Assembly (NCBI RefSeq): GCF_003334335.1
Contig: NZ_QOWQ01000001.1
DNA from: Escherichia coli
GTDB lineage: Bacteria; Pseudomonadota; Gammaproteobacteria; Enterobacterales; Enterobacteriaceae
DNA length: 64,000 bases
Reading direction: 5' to 3' (one strand)
This document shows positions 62,051-62,711 of the stretch, piece after piece. Every line of letters begins with the position of its first letter. The stretch's first letter is position 1. The translations under genes were made by a program, and so were the position numbers. Below the pieces are notes generated by a model. That model did no database searches. It was not told the DNA's origin and saw only the letters and a program-made list of their open reading frames with translations.

Positions 62051-62127
62051 GCCGAAATTTGCTCGTATCTACAATGTAGATTGATATATACTGTATCTAC
62101 ATATGATAGCGGTTTGAGGAAAGGGTT
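62051..62127 (+). promoter_or_regulatory. mazEF promoter region with palindromic operator
   Basis: ATCTACA-A-TGTAGAT palindrome at 62067..62081 and related TATCTACA at 62094..62101 just upstream of mazE. Confidence 0.5.
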
Positions 62128-62376
62128 ATGATCCACAGTAGCGTAAAGCGTTGGGGAAATTCACCGGCGGTGCGGATCCCGGCTACGTTAATGCAGGCGC
62201 TCAATCTGAATATTGATGATGAAGTGAAGATTGACCTGGTGGATGGCAAATTAATTATTGAGCCAGTGCGTAAAGAGCCCGTATTTACGCTTGCTGAACT
62301 GGTCAACGACATCACGCCGGAAAACCTCCACGAGAATATCGACTGGGGAGAGCCGAAAGATAAGGAAGTCTGGTAA
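62128..62376 (+). CDS. mazE: Antitoxin MazE
   Basis: 82-aa ORF; stop overlaps mazF ATG (TAATG). Confidence 0.9.
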
Positions 62377-62711
62377 TGGTAAGCCGATACGTACCCGATA
62401 TGGGCGATCTGATTTGGGTTGATTTTGACCCGACAAAAGGTAGCGAGCAAGCTGGACATCGTCCAGCTGTTGTCCTGAGTCCTTTCATGTACAACAACAA
62501 AACAGGTATGTGTCTGTGTGTTCCTTGTACAACGCAATCAAAAGGATATCCGTTCGAAGTTGTTTTATCCGGTCAGGAACGTGATGGCGTAGCGTTAGCT
62601 GATCAGGTAAAAAGTATCGCCTGGCGGGCAAGAGGAGCAACGAAGAAAGGAACAGTTGCCCCAGAGGAATTACAACTCATTAAAGCCAAAATTAACGTAC
62701 TGATTGGGTAG
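62376..62711 (+). CDS. mazF: Toxin MazF (mRNA interferase)
   Basis: 111-aa ORF. Confidence 0.9.
   Translation: MVSRYVPDMGDLIWVDFDPTKGSEQAGHRPAVVLSPFMYNNKTGMCLCVPCTTQSKGYPFEVVLSGQERDGVALADQVKSIAWRARGATKKGTVAPEELQLIKAKINVLIG

Follow-up and report, generated by a model that had tools for sequence, protein, structure and literature searches.

The mazEF toxin-antitoxin module downstream of relA in an Escherichia coli genome is the intact K-12 allele with its native regulatory DNA

Close to the end of the 64,000-nucleotide stretch of Escherichia coli DNA that was analyzed here (the window) lies relA (59816..62050, + strand), an open reading frame (ORF) to which the function of GTP diphosphokinase was assigned by annotation transfer, its product matching K-12 RelA at 743 of 744 residues. 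Direct reading of the window places 77 nt between the relA stop codon and the start of mazE (62128..62376, +). This gene encodes an antitoxin of 82 aa, in which an N-terminal domain of AbrB type binds DNA and a disordered tail binds MazF, and it is followed by mazF (62376..62711, +), the ORF of a 111-aa toxin, an ACA-specific endoribonuclease. The TAA codon of mazE (62374-62376) and the ATG codon of mazF (62376-62378) have one base in common (TAATG), and the antitoxin-first bicistron with overlapping genes is the gene order of a type II toxin-antitoxin operon. Beyond mazF are a spacer (62712..62781, +), the ORF of mazG (62782..63573, +; nucleoside triphosphate pyrophosphohydrolase; TIGR00444, 419 bits; NF007113, 370 bits) and, as the next gene, pyrG, which starts at 63802.

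Comparison with E. coli K-12 showed the module to be the same in both. The 661 bp from 62051 to 62711 match K-12 MG1655, as well as many further complete genomes, at 100% identity, and the whole-window comparison found zero differences from MG1655 across 60540..64000. The promoter, operator, mazE, mazF, mazF-mazG spacer, mazG and the encoded proteins are thus those of the K-12 mazEF locus (chpAI/chpAK, b2783-b2782) and its relA-mazEFG operon. At the protein level, MazE is identical to the sequence in PDB 1MVF/1UB4, and the MazF sequence is that of PDB 3NFC and, in 5CK9, that of residues 1-111. Profile searches gave the same assignments, MazE matching the NCBIfam equivalog NF007312 at 196.2 bits (cut-off 113, residues 1-82) and Pfam PF04014 (MazE_antitoxin; E = 4.6e-14, residues 6-51), and MazF matching the equivalog NF007386 "endoribonuclease MazF" at 227.4 bits (cut-off 120, full length 1-111) and PF02452 (PemK_toxin; E = 6.4e-24).

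The key residues of both proteins were read from the translations. MazF has E24, R29 and T52, the last two of which we take, from the MazF structural literature, to have catalytic roles. A MazF E24A mutant is inactive (PMC5888573). MazE has K7, R8, W9, N11 and R16, which contact DNA, and a C-terminal tail with W73, the part that binds MazF (PMC4333400, PMC4803016). The sequence-only reading had proposed K-12 alignment, with attention to the MazF catalytic residues and to the MazE C-terminal binding region, as the way to check its call, and on all three points the locus is unaltered, with no strain-specific substitution. A frameshift or premature stop, which that reading said would make the module a degenerate one, was found in neither mazE nor mazF by ORF reading and by alignment to K-12. 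Decay of the locus does occur in E. coli, for example in strain H65, in which mazEF is disrupted and split into two places. Here, none was found, and a degenerate or inactivated remnant (through a frameshift, a premature stop or the loss of key residues) is excluded by the full-length ORFs, by identity to K-12 DNA and by identity to the active proteins that have been crystallized; we give that reading a vanishingly small probability. ACA-specific cleavage of single-stranded RNA by the MazF of the window would be inherited from the identical protein that has been studied (PMC5888573). Overall, we are virtually certain that the locus is mazEF (chpA), the canonical type II toxin-antitoxin module of the E. 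coli chromosome, that its allele is the one of K-12, and that it is intact and retains its native regulatory DNA.

Two related systems help to place the module. The chromosomal paralogue of E. coli, chpBIK (ChpS/ChpB), has the same folds and families, and its NCBIfam equivalogs were matched weakly (ChpS, 34.6 bits; ChpB, 55.2 bits; cut-offs 101 and 129, respectively). Since these scores are far below the cut-offs, the module in the window is not chpB. The parD/pem system of plasmids R1/R100 (Kis-Kid / PemI-PemK) has a homologous toxin (Kid, PDB 1M1F, E = 7.6e-09) and resembles mazEF in its operon order and in an autoregulation that is tuned by the toxin:antitoxin ratio (PMC4333400). Unlike mazEF, it is plasmid-borne, distant in sequence and equipped with a different operator.

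The mazEF operator has been described as three adjacent sites, each for one MazE dimer, in the order c-a-b going downstream (PMC4333400). The published "cab" fragment that holds them, represented by nt 1-50 of the 51-nt oligonucleotide of Zorzini et al. 2015 (PMC4333400), matches 62062..62111 (+) exactly. Within it, site c (oligonucleotide GTATCTACAATGTAGATTG) maps to 62065..62083, site a (TTGATATATACTGT) to 62081..62094 and site b (ATATACTGTATCTACATAT) to 62086..62104, all on the + strand, and their KD values by isothermal titration calorimetry (ITC) are 0.6 µM, 5.1-5.6 µM and 2.1 µM, respectively (PMC4333400, Table 2). We followed this primary ITC table in regarding site c as the tightest single MazE site; a 2016 review (PMC4803016) ranks "a" above "b" and "c", in conflict with it. 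Site c holds the perfect 15-nt palindrome ATCTACA-A-TGTAGAT (62067..62081; arms 62067-62073 and 62075-62081). A repeat search found an ATATAT palindrome (62084..62089) at the center of site a, on which the structural model of MazE with DNA is based (PDB 2MRU; PMC4333400). A third copy of the arm, TATCTACA, was read directly at 62094-62101, and the repeat search returned a 9-nt direct repeat, GTATCTACA, at 62065-73 and 62093-101. Both the left arm and the right arm, ATCTACAT (62095-102), the latter in site b, are complementary to the middle arm, ATGTAGAT (62074-81). This geometry, which gives the middle arm two possible pairing partners, is the "alternating palindrome" described for the mazEF promoter (PMC4803016).

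The sequence-only reading had called a well-described mazEF module directly downstream of relA with an autoregulatory palindromic operator, and K-12 identity and the match to the operator oligonucleotide bear this out. Direct reading and the repeat search also returned every coordinate that it gave, namely the one-base TAATG overlap, the palindrome at 62067..62081 and the related element at 62094..62101. Its account of the operator as two elements was incomplete. The two correspond to sites c and b, and site a, between them, was omitted.

The arithmetic of the repeats carries less weight than this match. Other perfect palindromes of 14-15 nt occur in the surrounding 12 kb (relA itself contains GGCATCCGGATGCC, at 59958-71), and a single palindrome of that length is, alone, unremarkable; the pattern-specific expectation for the one at site c is 0.13, a post hoc figure. 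By a back-of-envelope estimate, about 0.004 occurrences per 64 kb would be expected for a direct repeat of 9 nt whose two copies lie within 40 nt and enclose an 8-mer inverse copy. Three divergent E. coli lineages show no change in sites c, a and b, a comparison of little power at 1-3% divergence, and the intergenic region of these copies has few changes (62058, 62108 and 62110). We call the operator because of its exact match to an experimentally characterized operator oligonucleotide, and the statistics are not decisive.

Because the palindromes begin close behind relA, we also considered that they might form a relA transcription terminator, or another structural element of the nucleic acid, and not a protein operator. 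They do lie 15-50 nt past the relA stop codon, and Marianovsky et al., as summarized in PMC4803016, gave the structure of the region precedence over its sequence. Against this, the operator folded as single-stranded DNA reaches just -4.2 kcal/mol (z = -0.65), which is no better than shuffled sequences, and its arms are AT-rich and have no T-run. Because of this weak z-score and of the scan of the + strand for terminators, which found none here, we rejected a terminator or stable structure. ITC, EMSA and NMR showed direct, specific binding of MazE to these duplexes (PMC4333400). By contrast, a strong hairpin behind relA is present in genomes that lack mazEF (-33.3 kcal/mol, z = -5.1). We therefore consider a structural origin of the palindromes very improbable and treat the region as the MazE operator.

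The operator also coincides with the start of transcription. The 75-bp fragment that Van Gundy et al. 2022 defined as "upstream of +1" (PMC8749433) maps to 62024..62098, which sets their sense +1 at 62099 (+), inside site b. From this position, the 5' UTR is 62099..62127 (+), and a Shine-Dalgarno sequence, GAGGA, was read directly within it at 62116..62120 (+). The DNA bound by the antitoxin (62062-62111; binding data in PMC4333400) thus overlaps the operon's own promoter, as is expected of a type II toxin-antitoxin operon. A -10 element that serves a +1 at 62099 must sit within sites a and b, and repression by promoter occlusion would be the natural reading. Our scan of the locus with a consensus promoter did not pick up the published mazEF promoter. 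The sole nearby + strand match in that scan (62103-62132) was rejected, as it would start transcription inside mazE. For the mazEF promoter, the spacing of P2 and P3 and a FIS site have been reported, as relayed second-hand in PMC4803016.

An antisense RNA, aMEF, has been described for the locus (PMC8749433). Its promoter fragment, represented by the oligonucleotide asmazE_F (Data Set S1 of that paper), has an exact match at 62416..62490 (-), which puts the aMEF +1 at 62415. This RNA is about 400 nt long and was seen solely in a mutant of RNase III (PMC8749433). From that length, aMEF probably ends at about 62015 and would overlap mazF in its first 13 codons, mazE in full, the operator and a few dozen bases at the end of relA. 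We regard a 146-aa ORF on the minus strand (62097..62537) as mechanical; its start codon is upstream of the aMEF +1 at 62415, so it is not encoded by aMEF.

Three synonymous differences from other E. coli fall in the part of mazF that is also the aMEF promoter fragment. At 62453, 62465 and 62483, the window and K-12 have T, A and T, respectively, versus C, G and G in three other aligned lineages, and the same differences recur in the "Shig_asmazEF" oligonucleotide (PMC8749433). As the K-12 allele differs at these positions, the antisense promoter known from work in K-12 represents, within the sequences compared, an allele other than the common one of E. coli.

On the + strand, our scan found no terminator-like site from relA through the end of mazG. 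This agrees with the published read-through, in which relA is transcribed into mazEF (PMC7167474) and mazG is co-transcribed with mazEF (PMC4803016). In the Northern blots of Van Gundy et al., a mazEFG transcript was not reproducibly visible (PMC8749433). Given the co-transcription of mazG and the antisense start at 62415(-), the functional unit reaches past 62711. A promoter-like sequence (CTGACA-16-GACAAT, 62751..62778, +) was noted a short way before mazG, in that portion of the mazF-mazG spacer which is common to genomes with no mazEF. In the uropathogenic strain U15A, the second hexamer at this place is GATAAT, which is nearer to consensus. The site at 62751..62778 may be a mazG-proximal promoter that is independent of mazEF.

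Taken together with the published work, the map shows how the module works. Transcription of mazE and mazF starts from the promoter in the relA-mazE spacer, at the published +1, and is supplemented by the published read-through from relA, and the TAATG overlap would probably couple translation of the two genes. Dimers of MazE occupy c-a-b (62065..62104) through the AbrB-type N-terminal domain, as published; in our mapping, these sites cover the required -35/-10 region and the +1, and RNA polymerase would be occluded. According to the published work, MazF dimers bind the disordered MazE tail, a ratio of about 1:1 raising operator affinity and a large excess of MazF lowering it. Under stress, MazE is degraded by ClpAP and Lon, as reported (PMC5888573). 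MazF also acts on its own message, on the sense strand of which we counted two ACA sites in mazE (62135 and 62309) and nine in mazF (62433, 62456, 62491, 62494, 62497, 62502, 62529, 62652 and 62672). Nikolic et al. 2018 (PMC5888573) gave the same numbers and demonstrated that, in vivo, the toxin cuts the mRNA by which it is encoded. Over both strands, 21 ACA were observed and 20.1 were expected from shuffled sequences, and this is neither avoidance nor enrichment. The antisense RNA from 62415(-) is reported to raise the levels of both MazE and MazF.

Whether a given E. coli has this module varies from genome to genome. Both relA and mazG are present in each of the 5,426 complete E. coli genomes, and in 4,416 of them mazEF is between the two; about 1,010 (~19%) have no mazEF. 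Alignment with the uropathogenic (UPEC) strain U15A delimits a cassette of ~690 bp (62051..~62740) with sharp boundaries, one at the relA stop codon and the other within the mazF-mazG spacer, ~41 nt before the mazG ATG. The empty-site allele, found in U15A and UTI89, has the same flanking genes as the window; in U15A, the place of the cassette is taken by ~53 nt with a strong, GC-rich hairpin of 12 bp, the one whose fold is given above. The presence/absence polymorphism of mazEF, and the presence of parDE at the same spot in Salmonella, have already been published (PMC7167474).

The biological role of chromosomal mazEF is disputed, the proposals being stress response, programmed death, persistence, phage exclusion and a selfish cassette (PMC7167474). 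One reading keeps the molecular mechanism set out above and changes its biological meaning alone: mazEF would be, in the main, a selfish addiction cassette that was inserted horizontally, or else a module for phage exclusion, and would be functionally unconnected to relA and the stringent response. We hold this to be a real contender, though at somewhat less than an even chance. The sharp-edged polymorphism speaks for insertion as a cassette, a view that has been published with the Salmonella parDE example (PMC7167474), and the modification of MazF by phage T4 (PMC4803016) speaks for a part in phage exclusion. Published work that links ppGpp and MazG to mazEF regulation (PMC4803016) speaks against this reading. 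MazE, MazF and MazG had no match at E <= 0.01 among the PADLOC-DB v2 models, which counts against phage exclusion and shows absence from that model library alone. The "defence" label of mazEF is a literature attribution and not a database one, and we do not file the module as a catalogued defence system. Under either meaning, the locus is the canonical mazEF module.

The window was also surveyed for other defence and stress functions, mazEF having been put forward in the sequence-only reading as its only module of either type. The window is colinear with K-12 and the K-12 annotation can therefore be transferred to it. By this annotation, the statement holds for toxin-antitoxin and dedicated defence loci. 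Taken broadly, it does not hold, as relA, recBCD, barA, rppH, ptsP, mutH, CsrB and GcvB are all present. Rfam searches placed three small RNAs above the gathering score: CsrB (48952..49311, +, 380 bits), GcvB (30566..30771, -, 199 bits) and ES036/CssrF (27508..27550, +, 46.5 bits). All three are absent from the RefSeq feature table returned for the stretch. An imperfect 36-nt palindrome, TAGGCCGGATAAGGCGTTAAC/GTTAACGCCGCATCCGGCATA, was seen between gudD and barA (55547..55582), and it resembles a REP-type element.

The differences that we noted between the window and K-12 lie in the flanks of the module alone. Over its whole length, the window is 99.98% identical to MG1655 (NZ_CP032667.1), with 15 substitutions in 64 kb (7 in 221-26082 and 8 in 26000-64000), one of which was placed, at 60539. 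This total is many for a direct laboratory derivative of K-12 and few for an independent isolate. The placed substitution, a G to A change in relA codon 242 relative to MG1655, gives RelA A242T, at a position that probably belongs to the synthetase half of RelA. A RelA with one accession, WP_000226815.1, is common to MG1655, O157:H7 and the clinical isolates U15A, AR Bank #0349 and UPEC129, and for the segment 60000-61100 of the window, the best match in the 5,426 complete genomes was 99.9%, none having the exact segment. It is conceivable, although we think it very unlikely, that A242T alters (p)ppGpp synthesis and that the strain is a natural variant in which the ppGpp-mazEF-mazG loop is shifted and mazEF itself is unchanged. 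The substitution may just as well be a private, neutral SNP, a rare natural variant, a laboratory-evolution mutation or a sequencing error.

The other difference is at the tRNA-fMet site, 36 kb upstream of the module. Between amiC and mltA, the window has one tRNA-Met (CAT) gene (26004..26080, -), and MG1655 has three tandem copies with a spacing of 110 bp; at this site, the window is 220 bp shorter than MG1655. The junction was at least 80% covered in 226 of the 5,426 genomes, and fewer than three tRNA-fMet copies would thus be uncommon. The single gene may represent a true contraction or a repeat that was collapsed in the assembly. RelA A242T and the single tRNA-fMet gene are the sole unusual features that were seen, and both sit outside mazEF.

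For novelty, mazEF in this window is a clean negative, as its genes, operator, promoter and antisense promoter are all as in K-12. The module was already known and has no strain-specific substitutions. It can serve as a positive control, since the sequence-only reading recognized a real module from the letters alone and set its limits correctly. What the window carries is the reference allele of a much-studied toxin-antitoxin system, for which the coordinate map of published regulatory elements assembled here may be useful.
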